Origin: a virus
Length of the DNA: 64,000 bases
IMG/VR virus record: IMGVR_UViG_3300045988_135886
Reading direction: 5' to 3' (one strand)
The notes below the pieces were generated by a model, which was not told the DNA's origin, searched no databases, and saw nothing but the letters and a program-made list of their open reading frames with translations. Position 1 is the stretch's first letter. Each line of letters starts with the position of its first letter. This document shows positions 4,996 through 20,794 of the stretch, in pieces. The position numbers and the translations under genes were made by a program.

Positions 4996-6765
4996 ATGGC
5001 TACACAGACATTGAATACTCGTATTGCCCTTAAATCGGATACAACCGCTAATTGGGCGAAATCTACGCTTGTTCTTTTAAAGGGTGAACAAGCGATTGAA
5101 ATTACAGAATCTGGTGCTTACAAAATTAAAATTGGTGATGGAGTTAAAACATTTGCTGAATTGCCATATGCAACTATGACACCAGAAGAAATCTCTGCAC
5201 TGATTGGTGATGGTTCAGTACAGAACGTAACTCTTGCTTCCGGTACTAACAACGGTACATTAAAACTGACTGTAGATGGAACAACTACAGATAATATTGC
5301 GGTAAAAGGATTAGGAAGTGCTGCATATACAAATACTTCTGCTTATGCAACTGCCGCACAGGGTGCTCTTGCTACAAACGCAGTCCGTAAAGTAGTTTCT
5401 GGCACTGCGAACGGTACAATCTCTGTAACAACAGGAACTGGAGCAGCAACAGATATAGCAGTAAAAGGATTGGGATCTGCTGCATATAAAGGAGCTGGAG
5501 CTTCACAGGGACAAGTTCCTGTAAATGGAGCCGCTCTTGGAACGACAGCCAATGTTCCTGTAGTAACAAATACTTCCGGACAGTTAGTTCCGCATGCCTC
5601 TGGTGCTCTTGGTTCTGCCGCATTTAAAGGTGCCGAGACATTTGCAACAGCTGCACAAGGTGCTAAAGCAGATAAATCAGTTCAGTCTGTATCTATTACT
5701 TCTGGAACTAATAACGGCACAATTAAATTAACTGTTAACGGCAATGCTACTGACAATATTGCTGTTAAAGGGCTAGGTTCTGCTGCTTACACAGCTTCAG
5801 GTGCCTATGCTACATCCGCTCAGGGTGCAAAAGCAGACGCGGCTATGCCAAAAGCCGGTGGTACATTCACAGGTACAGTAACGCTTGCAGCCGATCCAAC
5901 TGATGCTTTACAGCCAACAACAAAACAGTATGTAGATGCCAAAATTTCAAGTTCTATTGCTGCTTCTGATGCAATGGTGTTTAAAGGAACACTTGGAACT
6001 AATGGTACTGCTACTGCTCTTCCTACATCTTCTGTTGTAATAGGCGATACATATAAAGTAATTACTCAGGTTTCTGTAGTTGCTGATAATTCTTATACAG
6101 GAGCTGCTGTGACAGCTAAGGTCGGTGACTTAGTAGTCGCTATGTCAAAGGATCCAAAATGGATTGTTGTACCATCTGGTGATGAAATCGTTACTACTGT
6201 TAAGTATTCCACTACAACACAGAATCTTACAACAAGTGCTAAATCTGGAGAAATTACAGTAGGTGAAGCTGCTACAAAACAGGTAGATTCTTCTATCGCA
6301 GCCGCTTCTACTTCTACTAAGCTTCCAACTTCAAAAGCTGTTGCCGCTTTTGTTGAAGGAAAAGGTTACAAAACAACTGACCAGAAAGTAAAGAATACTC
6401 TTAATACTACTGCAAAGGCTTATGTAACTGGTACTACAAGTGCAACAACTGGTATTGGAGAACAGGTATTTGATACAGGTGTATATCTTGATACAACTGC
6501 TGGGAAACTTGTTGCTACTACTTTTGCAGGTGCTCTTCAGGGTAACGCAACGACTGCTACTTCTGCGGCTGCTTGTACAGGTAATGCTGCTTCTGCAACA
6601 AAACTTGCAGCATCAAGAAATTTCTCTCTTACTGGAGGTGCCGTTGCTGATGCTGTAGCATTTAACGGTGGAGGAAATGTTGCTCTTAGTGTTAAAAGTT
6701 TAAATACTGATTATTTAACTAATGGAGCCAATACTCTTATTTTAAATTGTGGGACATCTGTTTAA
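4996..6765 (+). CDS. Tail fibre protein with internal repeats
   Basis: The N-terminal motif 'LNTRIALKSDTTANWAKSTLVLLKGEQAIE..GDGVKTFAELPYA' is shared with the next gene. There are three copies of '..SGT.NGT(L/I)..T..G..TD(N)IAVKGLGSAAY..'. Composition is Ala/Thr/Gly-rich. Confidence 0.65.
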   Translation: MATQTLNTRIALKSDTTANWAKSTLVLLKGEQAIEITESGAYKIKIGDGVKTFAELPYATMTPEEISALIGDGSVQNVTLASGTNNGTLKLTVDGTTTDNIAVKGLGSAAYTNTSAYATAAQGALATNAVRKVVSGTANGTISVTTGTGAATDIAVKGLGSAAYKGAGASQGQVPVNGAALGTTANVPVVTNTSGQLVPHASGALGSAAFKGAETFATAAQGAKADKSVQSVSITSGTNNGTIKLTVNGNATDNIAVKGLGSAAYTASGAYATSAQGAKADAAMPKAGGTFTGTVTLAADPTDALQPTTKQYVDAKISSSIAASDAMVFKGTLGTNGTATALPTSSVVIGDTYKVITQVSVVADNSYTGAAVTAKVGDLVVAMSKDPKWIVVPSGDEIVTTVKYSTTTQNLTTSAKSGEITVGEAATKQVDSSIAAASTSTKLPTSKAVAAFVEGKGYKTTDQKVKNTLNTTAKAYVTGTTSATTGIGEQVFDTGVYLDTTAGKLVATTFAGALQGNATTATSAAACTGNAASATKLAASRNFSLTGGAVADAVAFNGGGNVALSVKSLNTDYLTNGANTLILNCGTSV

Positions 6766-6858: not shown

Positions 6859-8274
6859 ATGGGAGAACAAAATCTCAATATACGAATCAAACATAAATAT
6901 GATACGGAAGCTAATTGGAATAAAAATAATCCTGTTCTTTTAAGTGGAGAAATAGCAATTACAAGTGATAAATTCGGTAAACATAAAGTGGGAGATGGAA
7001 CACATAAATGGTCTGAACTATCTTATGCAAAAGCTGAACTTACAAAAGGCGATGTAACAGGCGCTCTTGGCTATACGCCTCCTTCAAGTGACACTTGGCG
7101 AGGTATTCAGGATAATCTAATAAGCAGCTCTACAACTGAGTCTCTATCTGCTGCACAGGGTAAAATATTAAAAGAGTTAGTTGACGGGAAAGCTCCGTCT
7201 TCACATACGCATACTAAAAGCGAAGTCGGATTAGGCAACGTTGACAATACTGCTGATGCCACAAAAAGTGTTAAATATGCTATTTCTGCAGGTAGCGCAT
7301 CATCTGCCGCTGCTCTTACTTCTAATGCTGGATCATCAACTCAGCCAGTATATTTCTCAGGTGGTAAACCAGTAGCTTGTTCATATACACTTGGTAAGTC
7401 AGTGCCTGCAGATGCATTATTTACCGATCATACTTATGGAAACATGAAGGGTGCTACTTCTTCTTCTGCCGGAAGTGCTGGTCTTGTTCCTGCACCTAAT
7501 ATAGGAGAACAATTAAAGTTTCTTCGTGCAGATGGTGCATGGGTAATCCCTACAAATACGACATATTCTGTAGGTACATCAAGTTACTTAGGAATAACTA
7601 AGCTTTATACTGAAACTGGGTCGGCTACAGATGGTACCATGACTCAAAATGCTATTACTTCTGCTCTTAACGGGAAATCTCCTACCTCTCATACGCACAA
7701 TTATGCAGGAAGTTCTTCTGCTGGCGGTGCTGCTACATCAGCAATTAAATTATCCACACCTAGAAAAATTGGTAACGCATCTTTTGATGGTACTGCTGAT
7801 ATTACCTTATCTCAGATGGGACTTAATGTTCCTGTTGAAATTACAAAAGCTAACTATCTTGCAAAAAAGAAAGCTGGAACTTTAAATGCAAATACCTATT
7901 ACAATGTTATTGATGAATATGATTCTGCAAATGTTATTAACGACTCATCTGTAACAGCCAACAGTGCGTTTTCAAGTACTAAATCAGAAAAAACATATGC
8001 GAAGAAAAGTACACTTGTTAATACTACTCTCACAGCAAGTAAATGGACTGGATCTTCTGCTCCATATAGTTATGTATTATCCGTATCTGGAGTAACTTCT
8101 TCAAATATTGTAGAAATAGATTATGCTTCTAATGCTTCATCTGCTGCTATTGAAGCTTATCAAAATGCAATGTTAGCTGACGGAGGACAGACTACAAATC
8201 AAATTACTATAAAAGCAACCGAGAAACCAACTGTAGATATTCCCATTACTATTGTTATAAGAAATGATTTATAA
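6859..8274 (+). CDS. Tail fibre protein (paralogous N-terminus)
   Basis: 'LNIRIKHKYDTEANWNKNNPVLLSGEIAI..GDGTHKWSELSYA' parallels the N-terminus of the 4996 gene. Fibre-type motifs include 'SHTHTKSEVGLGNVDNTADATK', 'SHTHNYAG' and 'KLSTPRKIGNASFDGTADIT'. Confidence 0.65.
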   Translation: MGEQNLNIRIKHKYDTEANWNKNNPVLLSGEIAITSDKFGKHKVGDGTHKWSELSYAKAELTKGDVTGALGYTPPSSDTWRGIQDNLISSSTTESLSAAQGKILKELVDGKAPSSHTHTKSEVGLGNVDNTADATKSVKYAISAGSASSAAALTSNAGSSTQPVYFSGGKPVACSYTLGKSVPADALFTDHTYGNMKGATSSSAGSAGLVPAPNIGEQLKFLRADGAWVIPTNTTYSVGTSSYLGITKLYTETGSATDGTMTQNAITSALNGKSPTSHTHNYAGSSSAGGAATSAIKLSTPRKIGNASFDGTADITLSQMGLNVPVEITKANYLAKKKAGTLNANTYYNVIDEYDSANVINDSSVTANSAFSSTKSEKTYAKKSTLVNTTLTASKWTGSSAPYSYVLSVSGVTSSNIVEIDYASNASSAAIEAYQNAMLADGGQTTNQITIKATEKPTVDIPITIVIRNDL

Positions 8275-8288
8275 AAGGAGGCGATAAC

Positions 8289-8831
8289 ATGGCAATTTAT
8301 AAAGGTGAACAATGTCTTGCCGGAGTTGGTAAGAATGCAACTATTAAAATTGGTACTGCTAAAACAGGTACTTCGGCTGCGGTAACTAATTCTGGTACTG
8401 ATACAGATGCTATATTGAATTTTACATTACCTAAAGGTGATCAGGGAGTTGGAATTTCAAGTGTTATCCCTCATTATCTTGCAAGTCCTAAATCGCAGGG
8501 AGTGACCAGATCAACTACTGGATGGGCGACTTCCGCTCAAGTTATGACATCTACAAATAAATATTTGTGGTGTTATCATGAATTTGTTTTGACAAACAAT
8601 AATCATTTGTATACAGATGCAACCGTTATAGGTGTTTATGGAGATAAAGGTGATCCGGGTACAACTGATTACAATGGATTGAAGAATAAACCGGTCGTTA
8701 ATGGAGCTGTAACTGCTTATCAGTCAGATATTATGAAATCTCAGTTGAGAAATGTGACATTCTCTACTGAAGAACCTAAGACAACTGATGGTAAACCTGG
8801 TGATATGTGGGTGGTGTATGGCGATGAGTAA
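8289..8831 (+). CDS. Small fibre-associated protein
   Basis: AAGGAGG SD. Ends in 'EEPKTTDGKPGDMWVVYGDE', a motif repeated at the C-terminus of the 10606 gene. Its stop overlaps the start region of the next gene. Confidence 0.45.
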   Translation: MAIYKGEQCLAGVGKNATIKIGTAKTGTSAAVTNSGTDTDAILNFTLPKGDQGVGISSVIPHYLASPKSQGVTRSTTGWATSAQVMTSTNKYLWCYHEFVLTNNNHLYTDATVIGVYGDKGDPGTTDYNGLKNKPVVNGAVTAYQSDIMKSQLRNVTFSTEEPKTTDGKPGDMWVVYGDE

Positions 8832-10590
8832 TATTAAAACTGGAGATATATTGAACTTTGATTATACTGGTGCTGTTCAGAGCGTAACATTGAAACCTGG
8901 AAAATATGTGCTTGAGTGTTGGGGTGCTCAAGGTGGAAATGGATGTACGGGAAATTCATATAAAGGCGGTGCCGGAGGATATTCCAAAGGTACTCTCACA
9001 CTAGCCAAAACAGAAACTTTATACATATATGTTGGTGGACAAGGAGTTAGCGCTGCAGCTTCTGGCAATGGAAATATTCGAGAAGGTGGATTCAACGGTG
9101 GTGGATCTGGACGTGATTGGGGTAGTACTGGTAATGGCGGTGGCGGAGGTGGTGGCGCCTCTGATATTCGAATTATAACTGATAACTTCTATGCTCGTGT
9201 TATAGTCGCCGGCGCTGGTGGTGGAGCTTCTGATAATGGAGCAGGCGGTGCTGGCGGCGGCACTTCTGGGATTTCATCATCCTCTTCCGCTGGAACAGCA
9301 ACTGGAGGCAGCGGTTTTGGTCAAGCGGCGGCATCAAGTTACACTTCAGGTGAATGTGGTGGCGGTGGCGGTGGCTGGTATGGAGGTTATGGCGGATCCT
9401 CAGAAAATTATTCTGGCGGTGGTGGATCAGGTTATGTCTACACTTCTTCTTCTGCTTCTAACTACCCTTCTGGATGCCTACTAAATTCTACTTATTATCT
9501 TTCTAATGCTCAAACCATTGCAGGAAATCAAACTTTTAAATCGCCTACTAATACAAATGAAACCGGTCACTCTGGTAACGGCTATTGTCGAATTACTGTT
9601 ATTGAATGCAGTAATACAGCACTATATGTCAGAATAAACAATTCTATGAAAAAAGCTACTGCTTTCTATTTCAAATTAAATAACAACAAAATGTACGGTG
9701 TTGGTTCTGCTAATTATAATGGTTCTGTTATGAATTTTGATTATACTGGTTCGGTTCAAACTGCTACATTGACTCCTGGTACATATACAATAGAATGCTG
9801 GGGTGGCCAAGGAGGAAGTTATAATAGTTACATAGGCGGATATGGTGGTTACTCCAAAGGCACAATTACTCTTACTAAAGCAACTACTGTTTATATATCT
9901 GTTGGTGGAGCTGGATCTTCCTCTTCTACTGCTGCAGGATTCAATGGTGGAGGAACTGGTATTTCTTCTGGTAGAGGTGGTGGAGGAGCTACAGATGTTC
10001 GTATAGGTCAAAATTCTCTATATTCAAGAGTTATCGTAGCCGGAGGTGGCGGCGGAGCTGGTGTAACAAGTGCCAATGCTAATCCTTGTGGTTGTGGTGG
10101 TGGAGAATATGGTGGAGATGGCTATTATAATAACACTACCGGTTCTTATACTACTGGTCAAAATAGATCTGGCGGTAGTGCCTCACAAACTGCAGGTGGT
10201 ATAACTTGGAGTACAGGCACCCAGGCTACTTTTGGTCAAGGCGGAAATGCTTCCGGCTACTCTTGTGGTGGCGGCGGAGGCGGCTGGTATGGAGGCGGCG
10301 GAGCCTATGACAATGATTCTGACTCTGATGGACGTTGGGGTGGAGGAGGATCAGGATATGTTTATACCTCTTCTACAGCTAAAAATTACCCTAACGGATG
10401 CCTACTAAATTCTACTTATTATCTTTCTAATGCTCAAACCATCGCAGGAAACACTTCTTTTACTTCTCCTACAGGATCAGCAGAAACTGGTCACACAGGC
10501 AGTGGATTCTGCAGAATTACAAATTTGAACCCAACACAATATGGATTATACGTAAAAACGAACTCTGGTTGGAAACACATAGATTTATAA
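8824..10590 (+). CDS. Glycine-rich protein with two tandem ALK/LTK-type glycine-rich domains
   Basis: Two copies of 'FDYTG.VQ..TL.PG.Y..ECWG.QGG ... YVGG.G ... GFNGGG ... GGGA(S/T)D(I/V)RI ... ARVIVAGGGGG ... GGGGGWYGG ... GGGSGYVYT ... YYLSNAQTIAGN..F.SP....ETGH.G.G.CRIT'. The start was chosen at ATG 8824 (7 nt after GGGTGGTG). ATG 8818 is also possible. Confidence 0.7.
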   Translation: MSNIKTGDILNFDYTGAVQSVTLKPGKYVLECWGAQGGNGCTGNSYKGGAGGYSKGTLTLAKTETLYIYVGGQGVSAAASGNGNIREGGFNGGGSGRDWGSTGNGGGGGGGASDIRIITDNFYARVIVAGAGGGASDNGAGGAGGGTSGISSSSSAGTATGGSGFGQAAASSYTSGECGGGGGGWYGGYGGSSENYSGGGGSGYVYTSSSASNYPSGCLLNSTYYLSNAQTIAGNQTFKSPTNTNETGHSGNGYCRITVIECSNTALYVRINNSMKKATAFYFKLNNNKMYGVGSANYNGSVMNFDYTGSVQTATLTPGTYTIECWGGQGGSYNSYIGGYGGYSKGTITLTKATTVYISVGGAGSSSSTAAGFNGGGTGISSGRGGGGATDVRIGQNSLYSRVIVAGGGGGAGVTSANANPCGCGGGEYGGDGYYNNTTGSYTTGQNRSGGSASQTAGGITWSTGTQATFGQGGNASGYSCGGGGGGWYGGGGAYDNDSDSDGRWGGGGSGYVYTSSTAKNYPNGCLLNSTYYLSNAQTIAGNTSFTSPTGSAETGHTGSGFCRITNLNPTQYGLYVKTNSGWKHIDL

Positions 10591-10605: not shown

Positions 10606-10881
10606 ATGCCGATTATATTTCACGGAACAGGTAGTGGCGGCTCTGCTAAAAAACTAAAAACCGCACGAACTATTAATGGTACGAATTTTGATGGTACAGC
10701 TAATATTACTACTGCTAATTGGGGAACAACAAGAACCGTTACTGTAGGAAATACAAGTAAATCTGTAAATGGATCTGGAAACGTAAGTTGGTCGTTAGCT
10801 GAAATAGGTATTCATCTTTCAACAACGGAACCTGCAGCTAGTGACGGAAAGAATGGAGATATTTGGATTACTTATGAATAA
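10606..10881 (+). CDS. Small fibre-associated protein (paralogous role to the 8289 gene)
   Basis: AAGGAGG SD. Contains 'KLKTARTINGTNFDGTANIT' (compare the 6859 gene). The C-terminal 'EPAASDGKNGDIWITYE' matches the C-terminus of the 8289 gene. Confidence 0.45.
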   Translation: MPIIFHGTGSGGSAKKLKTARTINGTNFDGTANITTANWGTTRTVTVGNTSKSVNGSGNVSWSLAEIGIHLSTTEPAASDGKNGDIWITYE

Positions 10882-10905
10882 AAGACTGAAAGGAAGGTGA
10901 GGCTT

Positions 10906-13347
10906 ATGGCTTGTTCTGGTGGATGTGGAACTTCTTGTTCTACTGACTGCACTCATTCATCATCTGGTGGATGTGGTGGTTCTTGTGGTGGTTCTTGCTC
11001 TACTAACTGTACTGGTGGATGTTCTGGATATTGTGATGGAACTTGTAAGGGAGGTTCAGGAAGTACTTGTTCTGACTGTACTGCCAAATGTGCTAATGAC
11101 TGTACCGGAGCTTGTACAAATGCTTGTGTAACCGGATGCACTGGCTGTGGGAACAACTGTGATGGAGACTGTACAAGCGCCTGTGCTCAAAGGTGCTCTA
11201 ATGATTGCAATGCTGCATGTACTGCTACTTGTGCTTATGATTGCGAACATACTTGCACTGCTTCTTGTGCCAACGACTGCACCAGTTGTGGTGGATCTTG
11301 CTCAAGTAATTGCTCAGGAAATTGTGATTCCGGTTGTTATACTGGTTGTTCCGGTTGTGATTCTACCTGTTCTGGATCCTGCACTGGTACTTGTAATACT
11401 ACTTGCACTACCACTTGTGCCAATGACTGCACTGGCGGGTGCAAAGGAACCTGTACAGGTGGATGTGGTGGTTCTTGTGATAATTCATGCGGCTTTTCTT
11501 GTGAAGCTTCATGTGATAACAATTGTACTGCTGTTTGTTCTGTATCTTCTGTGTATGGTGGAAACTCAGAGAAGAGTGTATTGAATTTTGCTTATACAGG
11601 TAAAGCTCAATCTGTAACCCTTGAGCCTGGAAAATATGTTCTTGAATGCTGGGGAGCACAGGGAGGTTATCGTTCTAATTCTAGTTATGGTGGAAAAGGT
11701 GGCTATTCTACAGGGACTTTAACATTGACTCAAAAAACTACTATATACATATATGTCGGTGGATCTGGAAATTCTGTTACATCAGCATCAAATTCAATCT
11801 ATCCCGGAGGTTTCAATGGTGGTGGATATAGATACAATTATAAAGGTGGTGGTGGCGCTACTGATATTCGTATTGGAAGTGCTTCTTTATATGCCCGTGT
11901 TATCGTTGCAGGTGGCGGTGGTTCTGATGGTAGTCCTAATTATAGTGGTGGGTATGCAGGTGGTGTATCTGGTACTAGGGGAAATTTTGGATGTGGTTCA
12001 TATGGATATGGTGGATCTCAAACTGCTTCATATTCATCTTTAAGTGCTATTAATTCACAAGGCACCACAAATTCTTCTTCTAACTGTGCTGCTGGTTTTG
12101 GTTTCGGTGGTTTTGGATGTTATTACGCTTCAGGTTACGGTGGAGCTGGCGGCGGAGGATGGTACGGTGGACAAGGTACTTATCCTGATGGTTCTGGAGA
12201 TGATGATGGCGGTGGCGGAGGTGGATCTGGTTACGTTTATACTTCCTCTTCTGCTTCTAACTATCCTCAAGGCTGTCTCCTAAATTCATCTTACTATCTT
12301 TCTGATGCTTCTAATTTATCTGGCAATGAATCTTTCAAATCTCCTTCTGGTGCTACAGAAACTGGTCATTCTGATAATGGCTATTGTAGGATTACCTGTT
12401 ATATCAAAAAGAAAACTCTACATTGTAAAATGAACAATGAAATTAAAAAAGCAGCTCCAGTATTTATGAAAATGAACAATAAAATTTATGATGCTGGCGC
12501 TAATGCTGTAATGGATTTTGCTTATACAGGAACAGCTCAAGCTATATCACTTCCAAGAGGAAAATATATTATAGAATGCTGGGGCGCTCAAGGCGGTTCA
12601 TATAGTAGTTATTATGGTGGTGCTGGAGGATATTCTGTCGGAACCATAACTCTAACTAAAAATTCTACGGATTTATATATTTATGTTGGTGGACAACCAG
12701 AAGCTACAACTTCAACAGGTGAAACACCTGGTGGATTTAACGGAGGAGGAAAAGGTTGTTCAAGAACTTATAATTATAGTAGTTATGGACAAGGTGGCGG
12801 CGGTGCAACCGATGTTCGTATAGGAAAAAATGATCTTTATGCTAGAGTTATTGTCGCTGGTGGCGGCGGAGGTTCATCATCAGAAAATTCGCTTACAACA
12901 AAATATGGCGGTGGAACTACTGGTGGTTCTTCTGCTTCTGGATATGGAGCTACACAAACTGCTGCAGGTACAAATGGTTCGTTTGGTCAAGGTGGTTCTG
13001 CAACAACTTCTGGAACTAATTATAATTATGGTTCCGGCGGTGGTGGAGGTGGATGGTATGGTGGTGGTGCATGTTCTGATTATAGTGACAGCACTAACTA
13101 CCAAGGCTATAATGGCGGAGGTTCAGGATATGTTTACACTTCAGCTACTGCTGCTAATTATCCAAGTGGTAATTATGTAAATTCTTCTTACTACCTTACC
13201 GATGCGCAAACTATAGCAGGAAATCAATCATTTAAATCACCTAATGGAACAAATGAAACAGGCCATACCGGAAATGGTTTCTGTCGTATCACACGTAAAT
13301 CAGGAAAAATATTTGTAAAACAAAACGGTTCATGGATCAAAGTATAA
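10906..13347 (+). CDS. Virion-module protein: N-terminal CXXX (Cys-every-4th-residue) array fused to two ALK-type glycine-rich domains
   Basis: The ATG at 10906 lies 8 nt after AGGAAGG (the track uses GTG 10897). The first ~210 aa contain 52 Cys, mostly spaced CX3. They are followed by two glycine-rich domain copies with the same motifs as the 8824 gene. Confidence 0.75.
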   Translation: MACSGGCGTSCSTDCTHSSSGGCGGSCGGSCSTNCTGGCSGYCDGTCKGGSGSTCSDCTAKCANDCTGACTNACVTGCTGCGNNCDGDCTSACAQRCSNDCNAACTATCAYDCEHTCTASCANDCTSCGGSCSSNCSGNCDSGCYTGCSGCDSTCSGSCTGTCNTTCTTTCANDCTGGCKGTCTGGCGGSCDNSCGFSCEASCDNNCTAVCSVSSVYGGNSEKSVLNFAYTGKAQSVTLEPGKYVLECWGAQGGYRSNSSYGGKGGYSTGTLTLTQKTTIYIYVGGSGNSVTSASNSIYPGGFNGGGYRYNYKGGGGATDIRIGSASLYARVIVAGGGGSDGSPNYSGGYAGGVSGTRGNFGCGSYGYGGSQTASYSSLSAINSQGTTNSSSNCAAGFGFGGFGCYYASGYGGAGGGGWYGGQGTYPDGSGDDDGGGGGGSGYVYTSSSASNYPQGCLLNSSYYLSDASNLSGNESFKSPSGATETGHSDNGYCRITCYIKKKTLHCKMNNEIKKAAPVFMKMNNKIYDAGANAVMDFAYTGTAQAISLPRGKYIIECWGAQGGSYSSYYGGAGGYSVGTITLTKNSTDLYIYVGGQPEATTSTGETPGGFNGGGKGCSRTYNYSSYGQGGGGATDVRIGKNDLYARVIVAGGGGGSSSENSLTTKYGGGTTGGSSASGYGATQTAAGTNGSFGQGGSATTSGTNYNYGSGGGGGGWYGGGACSDYSDSTNYQGYNGGGSGYVYTSATAANYPSGNYVNSSYYLTDAQTIAGNQSFKSPNGTNETGHTGNGFCRITRKSGKIFVKQNGSWIKV
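10912..11538 (+). repeat. Coding-level CXXX repeat array (TGT/TGC about every 12 nt)
   Basis: 52 Cys codons give 51 spacers: 45 of three residues, 4 of two (SD, TG, TS, SG) and 2 of seven (THSSSGG, KGGSGST). Spacers are almost entirely G/S/T/D/N/A. Confidence 0.9.
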
Positions 13348-13385
13348 CACTTTGGTCCATATTTAAATTACAAGGAGGAATTGTT

Positions 13386-13784
13386 ATGAAACTTATTTTG
13401 AAAGACGGACAAGAATTAGTTATTACTCGTGCTAACGATACATATTCATATGAAGGATATAAAGATGGGTTGGGAAATGATATGAACAAAAATATTGTAG
13501 CTACTATTTCTATCTTCAATTCTGATAAATCTTTAAACACTATTAAGGATATGATTACTGATGACAATAGAACAGGTTTTAAAATTATTTATGGGAATAC
13601 CCAGAAAGATTATACTGGAATGAAAATTGAAAGTATTTCAGAAGAAATCTCCAATGAAAGAAGTGTTATTAATATCTCATTAGCTACAGATAAAACCATA
13701 GCTCCTACTGAGACCACTGGAACAACAACAGAAAAAACTAAAGAAGAAACTAAAGAAAAAACGGAAACAGCTTCTGATAAATAA
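13386..13784 (+). CDS. Hypothetical protein with Thr/Glu/Lys-rich tail
   Basis: The ATG at 13386 is preceded by AAGGAGG (the track start at 13332 is an alternative codon without an SD). No recognisable motif. Confidence 0.45.
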   Translation: MKLILKDGQELVITRANDTYSYEGYKDGLGNDMNKNIVATISIFNSDKSLNTIKDMITDDNRTGFKIIYGNTQKDYTGMKIESISEEISNERSVINISLATDKTIAPTETTGTTTEKTKEETKEKTETASDK

Positions 13785-13809
13785 TTAAGAATGAAAGGAA
13801 TATAAGGAT

Positions 13810-14148
13810 ATGAGAAAAATAATCGTAAAGATTGATAAAGAAAAAGCTACAGAGCTTGAAAGAGTTAATTTTGAATTAAACTTCGTAAAAGACATTGTAC
13901 AGAGAGTTATTGAATCACATCCAAGCGATTTAGAACTCATCAATGGAGATACTCTTATGTCTTACAATAAACGTGGTGCAGAATTACAGAGAAAGTATGC
14001 TGCTCTTGCAAATGAGATGGAAAAGGAATACATCCCAGAATACCTCGAAGGTCATCAGTATAGTTGGATTATTCCAAATAATTCTGATGAAATGACTATT
14101 ACTATTAAATGTAATTGTGAGATTCCAGAATTAGAGGAAATAGCATGA
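13810..14148 (+). CDS. Small acidic protein translationally coupled to the radical SAM gene (candidate maturase accessory protein)
   Basis: GAAAGGA SD. ATGA stop/start overlap with the radical SAM gene at 14145-14148. No catalytic motif. Ends '..TIKCNCEIPELEEIA'. Confidence 0.4.
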   Translation: MRKIIVKIDKEKATELERVNFELNFVKDIVQRVIESHPSDLELINGDTLMSYNKRGAELQRKYAALANEMEKEYIPEYLEGHQYSWIIPNNSDEMTITIKCNCEIPELEEIA

Positions 14149-16544
14149 AAAGGACAGAACAATATTCGGATCAGATAGCTAGACTTTATCCATCTAAGAA
14201 GGTAAAAACCGATGACGGACAAAGAATATTAACACAGAGTATCACTTTTCAAGTAACTGATGATTGTAACCTTGCATGTAGTTATTGCCTTAGTGGAGAT
14301 ACAAAAATCCGTATGGCAGATTATTCGTTAAAATCAATCAAAGATATTCAGTTGGGAGATAAAGTGTTAGGATTTGAGGAATATCCTCAAAAAGGGAAAC
14401 AGACTAAGGTAATTGTTTCAGACGTAGAGAAATTATATTGTCATGAAGCATCAACTATCGAGTTAACATTTAATGACGGACAAATTCTTAATATTACTCC
14501 TAATCATAAAATTTTAGTTCGAAGAAATTCTTATGATAATAGATATGACTATGTTGAAGCTGGTAAACTAAATATAGGCAGTGAAGTGTATTACCTCCCT
14601 ATTATTGATTCAAAATTACATATAGAAGAGCCGATACATGACATAAATTATAAAATAGGATACCTTATTGCAATGATTAAAGGTGACGGTTCATTAAAAC
14701 ATTATAATCGAAAGTCTGATGGTTGTGATGTATTCAAGTTTAGAATAGCTGTAAAAGATACGGAAATAATCGAACGTTGTAAGAAGTATCTTGATGATTT
14801 AGATATTCCGGTTTATTTGAAACCGTATAATGTATCTAAAAAATACGATATATGGAACAATGCTATTTTTGCAAATACAAGATACGTATATAATAAATTA
14901 AATCAATTAATTAGCGATAATTTCTCTCAAAATACTTCTCTTTCATATTATCAAGGATATCTTGCAGGATTTTACGATGCTGAAGGTCATATTTCAAAAG
15001 AACGTGTTATCAGAATTTGCAATACAGATATTAAGATGATTAATGAGGCTACCTTAGGATTGGATTTGTTAAAGATTCCATACATAATCGAAGTTGATGC
15101 AAAAGGAACTGTGAATAAACCATTAAAATACAATATTCGAATAACTGATAACTTAAATTCTATATCTACATATCGTTTTATCAAATCTGTTCATCCAGCA
15201 ATAAAAAGAAAATCTTTTGATAATTTCCTTAATTATTCTCCATTAAAAAAGACTAAAATTATAGATATAAAAAAAAATCCTATTAGTACTACGGTATATA
15301 ACATAGGAACTTCATCTCGTACTTATATCGCAAACACTATTGCTGTACATAATTGTTACCAAGGACATAAAGGAAAAAATCGAATGTCGTTTGAAACAGC
15401 TAAGAAATTCTTTGATTTAGTTGTATCAGGTGAAAAAGGTTTTAAATCTTATATCAATCCAGAGAAATCTCCTGGATTGGTTGTAGATTTCATTGGAGGA
15501 GAACCTTTTCTTGAGATAGAGCTTATAGATCAAATCTGTACTTATATTATGGATAAACTCATAGAGTTGGATCATCCTTGGGCCATGAAAACTATGTTCT
15601 CTATTTGTTCAAATGGTGTTTTATACAGGGACGAAAAAGTACAAGCATTTCTTCGTAAGTGGGCCAATAGATTATCTTTCTCAGTTACTATTGATGGGAA
15701 TAAAGAATTACATGATTCCTGTCGAGTATTCCCAGATGGCAGTCCAAGTTATGACATAGCTGTCGATGCTGCGTCTGATTGGATGAAACGTGGAAATCAT
15801 ATGGGAAGCAAGATCACAATTGCTCCAGGTAATATCAGCTTTCTATACGATGCTATTAAGCATATGGTCGATCTTGGATATGATGAAATCAATGCCAATT
15901 GTGTATATGAAAAGGGTTGGACACCTGTACATGCAACTGTTCTTTACGATCAAATGAAACGCATATCTGATTATTTCTTGGAACAGAATTTTGATTTTGA
16001 ACGTGATTTCTTCTGTTCCCTTTATAATGAAGATTTCTTTCATCCTAAAGATCCTGATGATTTACAAAGCTGGTGCGGAGGCGTTGGTAATTCAATGATT
16101 GCTTGCGATCCTCAAGGTCGCATATTTCCATGTATCAGATATATGGAATCTTCTCTTAATGGAGAGCAAGAACCGTACTCTATTGGTGATGTAGATAATG
16201 GTATAGGATGCACAGAATGTTATAAATGCAGAATTAATTGTATGGCAAAAATAGATAGAAGGACACAGAGTACAGATGAATGTTTCTATTGTCCTATAGC
16301 TGCAGGATGTTCTAATTGTTCTGGTTATGATTATCAAGTGAATGGTACTCCTGACTCAAAAGCTACTTATATATGTGTTATGCATAAAGCTCGTGCTCTT
16401 GGAAACCTGTATTTCTGGAATAAATATTATAGAAAAAATAATATGAATAAACGAATGAAAAACTATGTGCCAGATGAATGGGCGCTTGAGATTATTTCTG
16501 AATCAGAACTTAATATGTTGAAAGAACTTGAAAGAGAGGATTAA
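14145..16544 (+). CDS. Radical SAM / SPASM-domain enzyme (anSME/peptide-maturase-like) interrupted by an intein
   Basis: After removing the intein the cluster motif reads 'CNLACSY|CYQGH' (CX3CX2C). Also present: 'DFIGGEPFL', 'SICSNG' and a C-terminal Cys-rich SPASM-like region ('CGGVGNSMIACDPQGRIFPCIRY', 'CFYCPIAAGCSNCSG'). Confidence 0.8.
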   Translation: MKRTEQYSDQIARLYPSKKVKTDDGQRILTQSITFQVTDDCNLACSYCLSGDTKIRMADYSLKSIKDIQLGDKVLGFEEYPQKGKQTKVIVSDVEKLYCHEASTIELTFNDGQILNITPNHKILVRRNSYDNRYDYVEAGKLNIGSEVYYLPIIDSKLHIEEPIHDINYKIGYLIAMIKGDGSLKHYNRKSDGCDVFKFRIAVKDTEIIERCKKYLDDLDIPVYLKPYNVSKKYDIWNNAIFANTRYVYNKLNQLISDNFSQNTSLSYYQGYLAGFYDAEGHISKERVIRICNTDIKMINEATLGLDLLKIPYIIEVDAKGTVNKPLKYNIRITDNLNSISTYRFIKSVHPAIKRKSFDNFLNYSPLKKTKIIDIKKNPISTTVYNIGTSSRTYIANTIAVHNCYQGHKGKNRMSFETAKKFFDLVVSGEKGFKSYINPEKSPGLVVDFIGGEPFLEIELIDQICTYIMDKLIELDHPWAMKTMFSICSNGVLYRDEKVQAFLRKWANRLSFSVTIDGNKELHDSCRVFPDGSPSYDIAVDAASDWMKRGNHMGSKITIAPGNISFLYDAIKHMVDLGYDEINANCVYEKGWTPVHATVLYDQMKRISDYFLEQNFDFERDFFCSLYNEDFFHPKDPDDLQSWCGGVGNSMIACDPQGRIFPCIRYMESSLNGEQEPYSIGDVDNGIGCTECYKCRINCMAKIDRRTQSTDECFYCPIAAGCSNCSGYDYQVNGTPDSKATYICVMHKARALGNLYFWNKYYRKNNMNKRMKNYVPDEWALEIISESELNMLKELERED
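14286..15353 (+). mobile_element. Intein (356 aa) with LAGLIDADG homing-endonuclease domain
   Basis: Begins 'CLSGDTKIRMADYS' (block A) and ends 'AVHN' followed by a +1 Cys. Two LAGLIDADG motifs are present ('IGYLIAMIKGDGSL', 'YLAGFYDAEGHI'). It is in frame with no stop codons. Confidence 0.85.
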
Positions 16545-16561
16545 AAGCCTCTCTTTTTTAT
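16533..16561 (+). terminator. Candidate intrinsic terminator after the radical SAM gene
   Basis: AGAGAGG-attaaaag-CCTCTCT followed by TTTTTTATT. It overlaps the stop codon. Confidence 0.45.
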
Positions 16562-16584
16562 TGACTAAAAGGAGGCTTGATATT

Positions 16585-18255
16585 ATGGCAGAAATTAAAG
16601 GAATTGATGTTTCCAGATGGAATGGAAACATCGACTGGAAAACTGTTGCTAGTTATGGAATGGGCTTCGCTATCCTAAGAATTACAGAAAAAGGAAATAT
16701 TGTTGATAGCACATTCGAACCTAATTATAAAGGCTGTATTGAGAATAAAATTCCTGTTGGAGTCTATAAATACAGCTATGCTACTACTATTGCTCAAATT
16801 AAAAATGAAGCAAATGTAGTTATTAAAACATTGAATAAAAGAAAACTGGATTATCCAGTGTTTCTTGATATAGAGGATAAATGTCAGGAGAATTTATCTG
16901 ACAATTTAATGATGAAAATGATCGAAGCGTTTAGAGCTATTATTGTCAAAGCTGGATATAAATTTGGTATTTACTGTGGTTATTCTTGGTATCAGTATCA
17001 ACTACCAGAAGGTGCTAAAAAGTATGATTGTTGGGTTGCCCGATATCCTAATAATGATACCGGTGAATTACAGGAAAGATTAAGAGTTCCTGCTTCTACT
17101 GGTGTTATTGGATGGCAATATTCTAGTAAGGCAACCATTCCTGGAATTCCAACAAAAACTGATCGAAGTGTATTCTATAAAGACTATTCTAAATCTTCTA
17201 CTACTTCTACAGACTCTCCCAAACCAACAACTACACAAGGAAGTGATACTATGAATAAAGATAAAGCTATTGATGCTCTTATTGCTTGCGCTGAAAATGA
17301 GGTTGGATATTTAGAGAAGAAATCTAATTCTCAGCTTGATGATAAAACTGCAAATGCAGGTTACAATAACTACACTAAATACTGGAGAGACGTATATCCT
17401 CAGTATCAGGCACAGGCTTGGTGTGCAGCGTTTGTGAGTTGGTGCATGATGAAAACATTCGGTCTTGATGTAGCTAAAAAACTCCTTAAACATTGGCCTT
17501 ATGTATACTGTCCTACTCTTGGAAATCTCTTTACAAAGTATGCAAATCCACAGCGAGGAGACATTGTGATCTTCTATCGTAACGGTACTTTTGCACATAC
17601 AGGAATTGTCACAAAAGTTGAAGGTGATAAGTTTTATACTATTGAAGGGAATACTTCAGCTGGCTCTACTGTTGTTCCAAATGGTGGAGGAGTTTTTGCT
17701 AAATCTTATTACAATTCTAATCTTCCAGGCACTAAATTCTGTCGTCCAGACTATTCTATTGTCACATCTATTTTAACATCTACTGCACCTGTACAGCCAT
17801 CTTATACTGCATGGGTAGGTTCTTGTACAGCTAATGGAACAGATGTATTCTCAGGCGCTACAGGAGCTTCTAAGTTAAGTACATATCCTAAACTTAATGC
17901 AGGTAATCTTGTGGATATCATCGGTGAATCTGGTACAAGATATCAGGTTCGTATCGCTGCAAAATATATAGGGTATGTAGAAAAATCTAACATTAAAAAT
18001 CCTAATACTCCTGCTGCAACAACTACAAAAAAATATCCATTTGTAGGAAAAGTAACTGCAAGTAAATTGAATGTTCGCAAAAAACCCGGTACTGAACATC
18101 CGGTACTTCCAGAGTATCCGATGTTAAATAAAGACAATCTTATTAATGTCCTCGGAGTTACAAAAGATACTAAAGGTGACAGATGGTACAAAGTATCAAT
18201 CACTAAAAAAGAATATGTTGGCTATGTATCAGCCAAATATATTACTAAGGCATAA
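16585..18255 (+). CDS. Multidomain endolysin: GH25 muramidase + CHAP/NlpC-P60-like amidase/peptidase + two SH3-like wall-binding domains
   Basis: The ATG at 16585 follows AAAGGAGG. The sequence shows 'IKGIDVSRWNGNIDW..FLDIED' (GH25-like), 'AWCAAFVSWC...FAHTGIV' (Cys/His of a CHAP/NlpC fold) and two C-terminal SH3-like repeats ('..RYQVRIAAKYIGYVEKSNI', '..RWYKVSITKKEYVGYVSAKYI'). Confidence 0.75.
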   Translation: MAEIKGIDVSRWNGNIDWKTVASYGMGFAILRITEKGNIVDSTFEPNYKGCIENKIPVGVYKYSYATTIAQIKNEANVVIKTLNKRKLDYPVFLDIEDKCQENLSDNLMMKMIEAFRAIIVKAGYKFGIYCGYSWYQYQLPEGAKKYDCWVARYPNNDTGELQERLRVPASTGVIGWQYSSKATIPGIPTKTDRSVFYKDYSKSSTTSTDSPKPTTTQGSDTMNKDKAIDALIACAENEVGYLEKKSNSQLDDKTANAGYNNYTKYWRDVYPQYQAQAWCAAFVSWCMMKTFGLDVAKKLLKHWPYVYCPTLGNLFTKYANPQRGDIVIFYRNGTFAHTGIVTKVEGDKFYTIEGNTSAGSTVVPNGGGVFAKSYYNSNLPGTKFCRPDYSIVTSILTSTAPVQPSYTAWVGSCTANGTDVFSGATGASKLSTYPKLNAGNLVDIIGESGTRYQVRIAAKYIGYVEKSNIKNPNTPAATTTKKYPFVGKVTASKLNVRKKPGTEHPVLPEYPMLNKDNLINVLGVTKDTKGDRWYKVSITKKEYVGYVSAKYITKA

Positions 18256-18815: not shown

Positions 18816-18820
18816 TTTAT

Positions 18821-18858
18821 GGGTAGTCAAGCATTATACTTGGCTACCCATTTTTTTA
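18821..18858. terminator. Bidirectional intrinsic terminator between convergent genes
   Basis: 12-bp stem TGGGTAGTCAAG / CTTGGCTACCCA (one G-U pair) with a 7-nt loop and a TTTTTTT tract. It lies between the + gene ending at 18815 and the - gene ending at 18856. Confidence 0.7.
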
Positions 18859-19499: not shown

Positions 19500-19600
19500 T
19501 TACTTAACACATAATTCATATTATCATAATTTTGGAAAAAAGTAAAGTTTTTTATTTTGTAAGTAAAATTAGTGTAATTTTGTACAACGGAGGGATGTAT

Positions 19601-20794
19601 ATGGCAAGAAGGGAAAAAGGTTCAGGATCATGGGATACTGTAACAAAGAATGACATTACATACTATAGGTACCGTAAGAAATATAATGGTATGACAAGCC
19701 GGAAAGAATTTGTAGGAAGGACAAAAGCTGATGTAAAACGCAAGATACAAGAATTTGAAGCTAAGAGTATGAGGGTTAACCAAAAAGATTATCGTAAGAT
19801 GACTCTTGGGGAATGTATAGATAATATCCTGCAGACGTTGGAGCCGACTTTCAAGACAAATAACTATGCTACTCTTCAGTCTACAAATCGCTGCTATATT
19901 AAAACTAATCCGATTGCTGATGTTCAGATGGCTGCTATAGACAAGATTGTCATTCAAACATACTATACAAATATGTCGAAGAAATATTCTGAGAGCACTG
20001 TTAAAAAGACACGCACTCTTTTCAATATTGTTTTCGACTATCTTGTATCCTGTAACATTATCACAGAGAATCCTGCAAAAGGGATTAAGATGCCGCATAA
20101 GTCAAAATATGCAGTACAGAAGAAAGAACACTCTTTCTTATCTTTAGAAGAAGCTGAGAAGTTTTATAAGACGGCTCTTATGAAAGCAAATTCTGCTTTG
20201 CCAGGCGTAAAGACAGGTGATTACATCTATGGACGTAATGCTAGGTTCTGTCTGTTAGTTCTTTATACTGGTATGCGTATAGGAGAAGCTTATGCTCTCA
20301 CATGGAAAGATATAGATTTTAAGAATAATACCATTAACATAGATAAGACAATGGAGCGTATCAAAGTAGATAGCAAATATCAGTGGCTCATAGATACACC
20401 AAAACGTCCTAAGTCAATCAGAGTTATTCCTCTGGCAAATCGTGCAAAGGAACAGCTGCTCTGGCTTAAAACTGTGTCTCCTGGACTGGAAGCATCCGGA
20501 GATGACCATATATTCGTAACTAAGAACAATATTCCACCATCACAGTCAACTCTTACCAGGACGCTTAAAGCGATCCTCAAGAGAGCCGGCATCGAATCTA
20601 ATGGTTTCGGCCTACATGATCTTAGGCATTCGTTCGGATCTATGCTGCTGCAGAAAGGATGGGAACAGAACCAGCCTGTAGATATTAAGGTAATATCAGA
20701 GATACTTGGACATGAAGATGTTTCCACAACTTATAACATATATATGCATATCATGAATAAACATAAATCAGAAGTCATAAATTTACTTGATTAA
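19601..20794 (+). CDS. int: Tyrosine recombinase / phage integrase
   Basis: The ATG at 19601 lies 6 nt after GGAGGG (the track start at 19532 is TTG without an SD). Catalytic-region motifs are 'YTGMRIGEAYALTWKDID', 'HDLRHSFGS' and 'LGHEDVSTTYNIYMH'. Confidence 0.85.
   Translation: MARREKGSGSWDTVTKNDITYYRYRKKYNGMTSRKEFVGRTKADVKRKIQEFEAKSMRVNQKDYRKMTLGECIDNILQTLEPTFKTNNYATLQSTNRCYIKTNPIADVQMAAIDKIVIQTYYTNMSKKYSESTVKKTRTLFNIVFDYLVSCNIITENPAKGIKMPHKSKYAVQKKEHSFLSLEEAEKFYKTALMKANSALPGVKTGDYIYGRNARFCLLVLYTGMRIGEAYALTWKDIDFKNNTINIDKTMERIKVDSKYQWLIDTPKRPKSIRVIPLANRAKEQLLWLKTVSPGLEASGDDHIFVTKNNIPPSQSTLTRTLKAILKRAGIESNGFGLHDLRHSFGSMLLQKGWEQNQPVDIKVISEILGHEDVSTTYNIYMHIMNKHKSEVINLLD

Follow-up and report, generated by a model that had tools for sequence, protein, structure and literature searches.

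A leaderless cysteine array on a phage fibre-like protein, encoded beside a CXXX-repeat-type radical SAM maturase

Introduction

Proteins with a cysteine at every fourth residue are the targets of a CXXX-repeat system that is already known as NCBIfam and Pfam models and is experimentally uncharacterised; it comprises a target (TIGR04114), a radical S-adenosylmethionine (SAM) maturase (TIGR04115), a small protein (TIGR04116) and a second maturase (TIGR04119), together with the Pfam family PF27846. Here we describe an array of this kind at the N-terminus of an 813-residue fibre-like protein encoded at 10906..13347 (+ strand) in a 64,000-nucleotide stretch of viral DNA (IMG/VR virus record IMGVR_UViG_3300045988_135886), which as a whole is referred to below as the window. 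We estimate at roughly 60% the probability that a phage-encoded CXXX-repeat system of three parts, namely the target, a 112-residue partner and a radical SAM/SPASM maturase, has the array as its substrate domain, and that the product is a thioether-braced fibre stalk. The locus resembles the described system in its cysteine periodicity, its small polar spacers, a nearby TIGR04115 maturase that scores above the family cutoff, a partner probably related to TIGR04116, and the placement of all of these genes on the same strand. It differs in that the target is the N-terminus of a large fibre-like protein rather than a Tat-signal protein of about 100–250 residues, has no leader or signal peptide, lacks TIGR04119, is served by a maturase with an intein, and lies in a phage tail-fibre and lysis module.

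Three other groups of proteins invite comparison. The maturation of ranthipeptides, sactipeptides and QhpC (PapB/PapA freyrasin, CteB/SCIFF and QhpD/QhpC) likewise pairs a radical SAM/SPASM enzyme with a cysteine-rich substrate, and in QhpC there is a precedent for stapling a protein subunit, as opposed to a secreted peptide, through thioethers. The window array differs from the substrates of these ribosomally made, post-translationally modified peptide (RiPP) systems in having 52 cysteines rather than three to six and no fixed acceptor such as the Asp of CX3D (CXn denoting n residues between successive cysteines), and its putative enzyme is without a RiPP recognition element (RRE). Two C-terminal copies of the glycine-rich domain (GRD) PF12810 (ALK_LTK_GRD), together with a paralogue encoded upstream, place the 813-residue protein among the GRD proteins, but most GRD homologues, including that paralogue, have no cysteine array. 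With metallothioneins the array shares a high cysteine content and few aromatic or hydrophobic residues; unlike them it is of the CX3 type with no CxC, has no Pfam or metallothionein PDB match, and is linked to a dedicated radical SAM enzyme.

The literature searched (the CXXX family, ranthipeptides in phages, and radical SAM enzymes with tail fibres) describes neither the family nor any instance in a phage. What is new here is a target that lacks a leader and is fused to a large fibre-like protein of a phage, a minimal three-part system without TIGR04119, a maturase split by an intein, and the recurrence of array and radical SAM pairs in the tail modules of several phage types.

Results and Discussion

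The cysteine array

The array spans 10912..11538 (+), corresponding to residues 3–211, and contains 52 cysteines in 209 residues (25% Cys); it is the presumed substrate region of the maturase. Retranslation gives 45 of the 51 spacers as three residues long, four as two residues (SD, TG, TS and SG) and two as seven residues (THSSSGG and KGGSGST), exactly as counted in the original prediction, which was a model's reading of the sequence; there is no CxC, and CX2 accounts for only 4/51 spacers. Its description of the spacers as built almost entirely of G, S, T, D, N and A is borne out as well, with these six residues making up 142 of the 157 spacer positions. By comparison, 10,000 shuffles of the 209 residues yield a mean of 5.4 CX3 spacers and a maximum of 15. 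Spacer autocorrelation revealed no period within the array longer than the CXXX unit.

The array is in frame with the rest of the 813-residue protein in a single open reading frame (ORF), which also has a GTG at 10897; the likely start is the ATG at 10906, which follows AAGGTGAGG and gives a product beginning MACSGGCG. A database protein 98% identical to it, P0078, belongs to a cluster of 3204 member sequences and has been assigned this same start. With the array beginning at residue 3 (MAC...), the protein lacks a leader or signal peptide. The array has no matches at E ≤ 10 in a Pfam set without PF27846, and in the PDB its best match is only a trypsin inhibitor (E 0.14). PF27846 (tSAM_targ_Cxxx_rpt) is listed as 'faint' among the precomputed matches of P0078, and many relatives also carry PF27846. 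An AlphaFold2 (AF2) model of residues 1–265, built from a 16-sequence alignment, has a mean predicted local distance difference test score (pLDDT) of 36, falling to about 30 over the array, with no confident fold and no solenoid.

The radical SAM maturase and its partner

The radical SAM/SPASM maturase gene (14145..16544, +) lies three genes downstream of the array gene on the same strand, and encodes a 799-residue ORF with a 443-residue extein interrupted by an intein. With the intein included, the ORF scores 504.6 bits (cutoff 350, E 2e-151) on TIGR04115 of NCBIfam ("radical SAM peptide maturase, CXXX-repeat target family") and belongs to that family. The next-best NCBIfam models, PapB (151 bits), SCIFF maturase (94) and QhpD (90), are far below the cutoffs for those families (340–453). 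The closest solved structure is CteB (5WGG, E 1.3e-19), and the alignment begins at CteB residue 91 (query residue 25), leaving the N-terminal part of CteB, which we take to be its RRE domain, without a counterpart. The CxxxCxxC and SPASM cysteines are invariant in an alignment of the radical SAM enzymes (alignment A1).

The intein (14286..15353, +) is 356 residues long with Hint and LAGLIDADG components, and is inserted directly before the third cysteine of CNLACSY|C. It is present in about six of about 40 near-identical IMG/VR alleles of the maturase, the intein-less alleles being 443 residues long. A different mini-intein of 142 residues is found in the maturase gene (10935..13061) of an unrelated large phage-like contig (L047/L048), where it precedes the second cysteine of the CxxxCxxC motif; two different inteins in one motif suggest that inteins repeatedly target the radical SAM cluster site. 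Another maturase gene, on a 175-kb phage-like contig (L045/L046, 6251..7576), contains nine in-frame TAG codons at the Gln positions of its homologues and ends in TAA, and TAG therefore appears to be recoded in that phage. The radical SAM gene of phage FNU1 was considered as a related phage case and set aside, as it encodes an unrelated protein of 260 residues.

The 112-residue partner (13810..14148, +) is probably distantly homologous to TIGR04116 ('CXXX repeat peptide modification system protein'). It has no direct NCBIfam match, but is linked by jackhmmer (E 2e-14) to an ORF in a cellular locus, L049, that itself scores 88.7 bits on TIGR04116; the same search recovers a small related ORF from 74 of 80 genome loci and from every phage clade. 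Its AF2 model (pLDDT 89) is a helical hairpin capped by a three-stranded sheet. There is an invariant C101-x-C103 near the C-terminus, which the Bacteroidales TIGR04116 member is without. A profile search of PDB sequences with the partner returned nothing. We also considered that it might be a stand-alone PqqD-like RRE, and rejected this on account of its hairpin-plus-sheet fold, a Foldseek comparison with the PDB that gave a best E of 0.65, and the lack of any PqqD match.

Linkage of arrays and maturases

Alignment A1 was used to fetch 80 genome loci and 76 new viral loci (80 of 342 viral relatives), and these were scored for an array ORF, defined as an ORF near the radical SAM gene on the same strand with at least six CX3 spacers. 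Array ORFs are present in 70/80 genome loci and 75/76 viral loci, for a total of 145/156, and are usually directly upstream of the radical SAM gene. The reverse look-up agrees, with the radical SAM gene either adjacent or no more than four genes away for all six of six array proteins. All of the related loci are from anaerobes (Clostridia and Bacteroidales).

Pairs of array and radical SAM genes recur in several unrelated phage lineages of anaerobes, with five distinct gene layouts. The fusion of array and GRDs is found only in the window's clade (34 viral loci and no genome loci). In a sister clade of Blautia-type prophages, where the radical SAM enzymes are 67–70% identical, the arrays are separate proteins, one of 157–177 residues with 17 cysteines and a second of 213–265 residues with 47–60 cysteines that starts MACSKGCGTSC; they are encoded between baseplate-J-like and tail-fibre genes, and are followed by the small partner and the radical SAM gene. 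The other phage contexts include a contractile-tail phage (L207) in which the array follows PAAR, sheath-initiator and wedge genes, a phage with an SU10-type adaptor (L209) with an array and a radical SAM gene nearby, and the L047/L048 phage-like contig of 120–236 kb. In four phage contexts other than that of the window the pair lies among tail or other virion genes, and L201, from the sister clade, and L207 have recognisable baseplate genes. We note that L201 also has a 425-residue ORF (12829..14106) that, as read from its sequence, may be reverse-transcriptase-like.

The cellular systems are organized differently from the window. Targets of the Bacteroidales group (L063–L130) are 58–246 residues long, and 77/86 have a twin-arginine signal (SRREFFKKAAK...). 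In L049 (8001..12459) TatA and TatC are in the same cluster, which also includes a SPASM-only second maturase, a 315-residue protein that scores 245 bits on TIGR04119. A jackhmmer search with this protein finds a TIGR04119-type short paralogue in 63 Bacteroidales-group loci, and in the window and the phage loci it matches the radical SAM enzyme alone, TIGR04119 being absent there.

An exhaustive search gave 202 representatives at E ≤ 1e-3, including proteins of 1.4–2.4 thousand residues and arrays of up to about 500 residues. The large array proteins are fused to Flg_new, CBM_4_9, fn3 or LysM domains, and arrays on large surface-binding proteins thus appear to be a wider and undescribed theme. 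Examples are P0241, P0242, P0269, P0285 and P0247 (673–1803 residues, with arrays of up to about 500 residues and Flg_new, CBM_4_9, fn3, LysM or Ig-like domains), in several of which the array starts at the initiator Met, as it does in the window protein.

Among 50,697 GenBank phage records, relatives of the radical SAM enzyme are found only in four unannotated faecal contigs, at no more than 36% identity, and the system was not found in any cultured phage in that set. The single megablast match, to MT835469, was discounted, since it covers the endolysin region and not the array, and MT835469 has no array, GRD or radical SAM gene within 9 kb of its endolysin.

Conservation of the cysteines and their spacing

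Comparison with diverged homologues argues that the cysteines and their spacing are under selection. In L035, 47 of 48 aligned cysteines are kept while the other residues are 33% identical, and in L036 the corresponding values are 49 of 50 and 37%. Conservation is highest at the ends of the array, and the middle is replaced or resized in some variants; the L009 array has 55 cysteines, and P0094 has lost exactly three CXXX units (12 residues) in phase. In homologues with 33–37% spacer identity, the same aligned positions hold the first CX7, the next long spacer (which is CX7 or CX8) and the CX2 after it, and the irregular spacers are therefore not random. This is in accord with the suggestion that they could mark boundaries within the array, at least insofar as they are conserved landmarks. 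In 184 distinct targets, CX3 makes up 74–89% of the spacers and CX2 7–25%; Gly is abundant at spacer position 2, and no Pro occurs in the phage sets.

The regularity is kept at the level of the protein and is not a product of recent slippage, as the original prediction had proposed; the evidence is the autocorrelation of the DNA together with the cysteine conservation in diverged homologues. DNA identity at a lag of 12 nt is 0.485, confirming a 12-nt period, and drops to 0.383 when the Cys codons are excluded, which is within the range of other in-frame lags (0.36–0.41); the period is thus due to the Cys codons alone. Long exact DNA repeats are absent, also as first reported: the longest is 22 nt, coding for GGCGGSC near both ends of the array (synonymous recodings give 11–20 nt, 5–95% range), and Tandem Repeats Finder reports merely two- to four-copy runs of 12 nt with scores of 40–55. 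TGT and TGC had been said to alternate, and although both are used (37 TGT and 15 TGC), there is no strict alternation. ORFs overlapping the array in other frames and on the other strand (10919..11131, 10953..11156, 11056..11250, 11147..11584, 11337..11522 and 11408..11659) encode low-complexity strings rich in V, L, Q and P, in keeping with their earlier dismissal as spurious.

The array gene in a tail-fibre module

The 600 C-terminal residues of the 813-residue protein consist of the two PF12810 copies (E 4.5e-97), at 11578..12420 and 12508..13317 (both +). Homologues at about 60% identity in Blautia wexlerae are named glycine rich domain-containing protein. The GRD cassettes vary among database relatives, with two or three GRDs of different types and, in P0120, an SH3 tail, and in all of the variants the array is N-terminal. 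That the array is conserved while the receptor-binding cassettes joined to it are shuffled suggests a modular device for host range in phages common in the human gut.

The array gene is located in a tail-fibre module, with ORFs matching Mtd_N, Phage_fiber_rpt and tail-fibre PHROGs upstream and an endolysin gene downstream, a position from which the 813-residue protein is probably a virion component. Two tail-fibre-type ORFs (4996..6765 and 6859..8274) start with an Mtd_N (major tropism determinant N-terminal) domain; these are followed by the upstream paralogue, identified by Pfam (8788..10590, +), which carries a pair of GRDs and lacks an array. A 91-residue ORF (10606..10881) that separates the two GRD genes matches tail-fibre repeat PHROGs and may be a small fibre component or a remnant. 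Downstream, a 150-residue ORF (13332..13784, +) overlaps the stop codon of the array gene and is conserved only in the phage clades and two Clostridia loci; the partner and maturase genes follow, and the next gene in the same + strand block encodes an endolysin with GH25, CHAP and SH3 domains (16528..18255, +). The block is closed by a strong terminator at 18819..18851, and a terminator scan found none of comparable quality between the array gene and the 799-residue radical SAM ORF. Domain annotation of the ORFs in the block showed no protease or exporter gene.

Proposed modification of the array and alternative explanations

Thioethers are proposed because PapB, CteB/SCIFF maturase, QhpD and SkfB, which we take to be the characterised relatives of the radical SAM enzyme and to form Cys thioethers, join the sulfur of a Cys to a carbon in a different residue. 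In the pathway that we envisage, late expression in an anaerobic host would be accompanied by splicing of the intein out of the maturase, restoring the CxxxCxxC cluster site, and the spliced enzyme would then modify cysteines in the N-terminal 209 residues of the fibre protein. The likeliest reaction would be formation of intramolecular thioethers, with the sulfur of a Cys joined to a carbon in a neighbouring residue, and the product would be a densely cross-braced stalk that resists opening by reduction and bears, at the tail tip, two exchangeable receptor-binding modules of the ALK/LTK-GRD type. Reduction-proof bracing would suit phages of strict anaerobes, in which disulfides may be unreliable. 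A more specific version, which we put forward only tentatively, is that the first 209 residues become a poly-thioether ladder of up to 52 cross-links, and that in an oxygen-free, reducing habitat such ladders take the place of disulfide bracing with bonds that cannot be reduced, a solution that recurs across several phage lineages unrelated to one another.

Several observations weigh against modification of this kind. The thioether chemistry is argued from enzyme homology at 25–35% identity, and the literature searched contains no published chemistry for any TIGR04115 member. The array itself matches the target models weakly and below their cutoffs, with 19.9 bits on TIGR04117 (cutoff 50) and 14.6 bits on TIGR04114 (cutoff 20). 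The alignment to CteB shows no N-terminal RRE domain in the maturase, nor is the partner RRE-like in its AF2 model or by Foldseek, and the phage system is without TIGR04119, the second maturase of the 63 Bacteroidales-group loci. Gly also occurs at all three spacer positions, and there can therefore be no single side-chain acceptor for every unit; this would imply either that links are made to the alpha-carbon or that only some of the cysteines are modified.

The original prediction had offered two other readings of the array, as a metallothionein-like or cluster-binding domain and as a disulfide-laddered beta-solenoid, and our results support neither. For the array to bind metal or Fe-S clusters, with the radical SAM/SPASM enzyme and the partner aiding only in loading or maturation, would be consistent with its 25% Cys, with the failure of AF2 to find an autonomous fold for it, and with the twin-arginine signals on 77/86 Bacteroidales-group homologues and the adjoining TatA and TatC of L049, as cofactor-loaded or folded proteins are the typical cargo of the Tat pathway. 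A cross-linked product incompatible with Sec would suit Tat export just as well, however, and the array is uniformly CX3, pairs of the CxC and CxxC kind, as are usual in metallothioneins and ferredoxins, being in the minority (CX2 7–25%). Moreover, the closest characterised relatives of the enzyme bond Cys sulfur covalently, which would remove the thiolates needed for metal, and metal binding does not explain a dedicated TIGR04115 enzyme three genes downstream; we consider this explanation unlikely. A self-folding disulfide-laddered beta-solenoid or rod, to which the radical SAM gene would be functionally unrelated, appears less likely still, and we regard it as very improbable. The regular cysteine spacing is like that of disulfide-braced repeat proteins such as the beetle antifreeze beta-helix, and small residues dominate the spacers, but the AF2 model shows no solenoid (pLDDT about 30) and the co-occurrence of array and radical SAM genes in 145/156 loci argues that they are not independent. 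The protein would also be made in a reducing, anaerobic cytoplasm, all related loci being from anaerobes, and in the cytoplasm of strict anaerobes a newly made protein is unlikely to form a ladder of disulfides. The earlier idea of a covalently laddered rod may nonetheless be close in spirit to the thioether-braced stalk, with thioethers in place of disulfides.

The array could otherwise have no structural role in the fibre, being either a flexible low-complexity linker or a segment cleaved off as a separate RiPP-like peptide. AF2 predicts disorder, the sister phage clade has stand-alone array proteins (224–265 residues), and the targets of the cellular systems are short and exported, all of which are compatible with such a role. 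A mere linker, though, would not be expected to keep 47/48 and 49/50 cysteines and the CX3 phase at 33–37% spacer identity; the fusion is stable over dozens of variants despite the shuffling of GRD cassettes, and the block lacks a recognised protease or exporter gene. We judge both forms of this alternative to be quite unlikely, and favour the array as the substrate of the neighbouring maturase.

Should the array prove to be cross-linked, it would be a new kind of covalently braced protein rod, and an instance of RiPP-type radical SAM maturation applied to a phage structural protein, to our knowledge the first. As a large, abundant and leaderless substrate encoded beside its enzyme, the phage version makes the chemistry directly testable.

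Other features of the locus and its host

The second GRD contains an A6 run at about 12823–12828, and in the database variants P0103–P0110 (757 residues) one A has been lost from this run; the resulting frameshift causes these proteins to read on in the frame of an otherwise spurious ORF at 12830..13180. The loss may reflect either a sequencing error or phase variation at the receptor-binding end. A further frameshift, in the first GRD, is present in L033, which comes from an isolate genome.

Elsewhere in the window are genes for a DNA polymerase, a ribonucleotide reductase, helicases, an RNA ligase and NAMPT, a gene content that indicates a large phage; related IMG/VR contigs are up to 177 kb. 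The closest cellular homologues of both the radical SAM enzyme and the GRDs are in Blautia, and the GC content of the window is 35%. A tyrosine recombinase/integrase gene is present at 19532..20794, within this large phage genome with its own DNA polymerase, ribonucleotide reductase and helicases.

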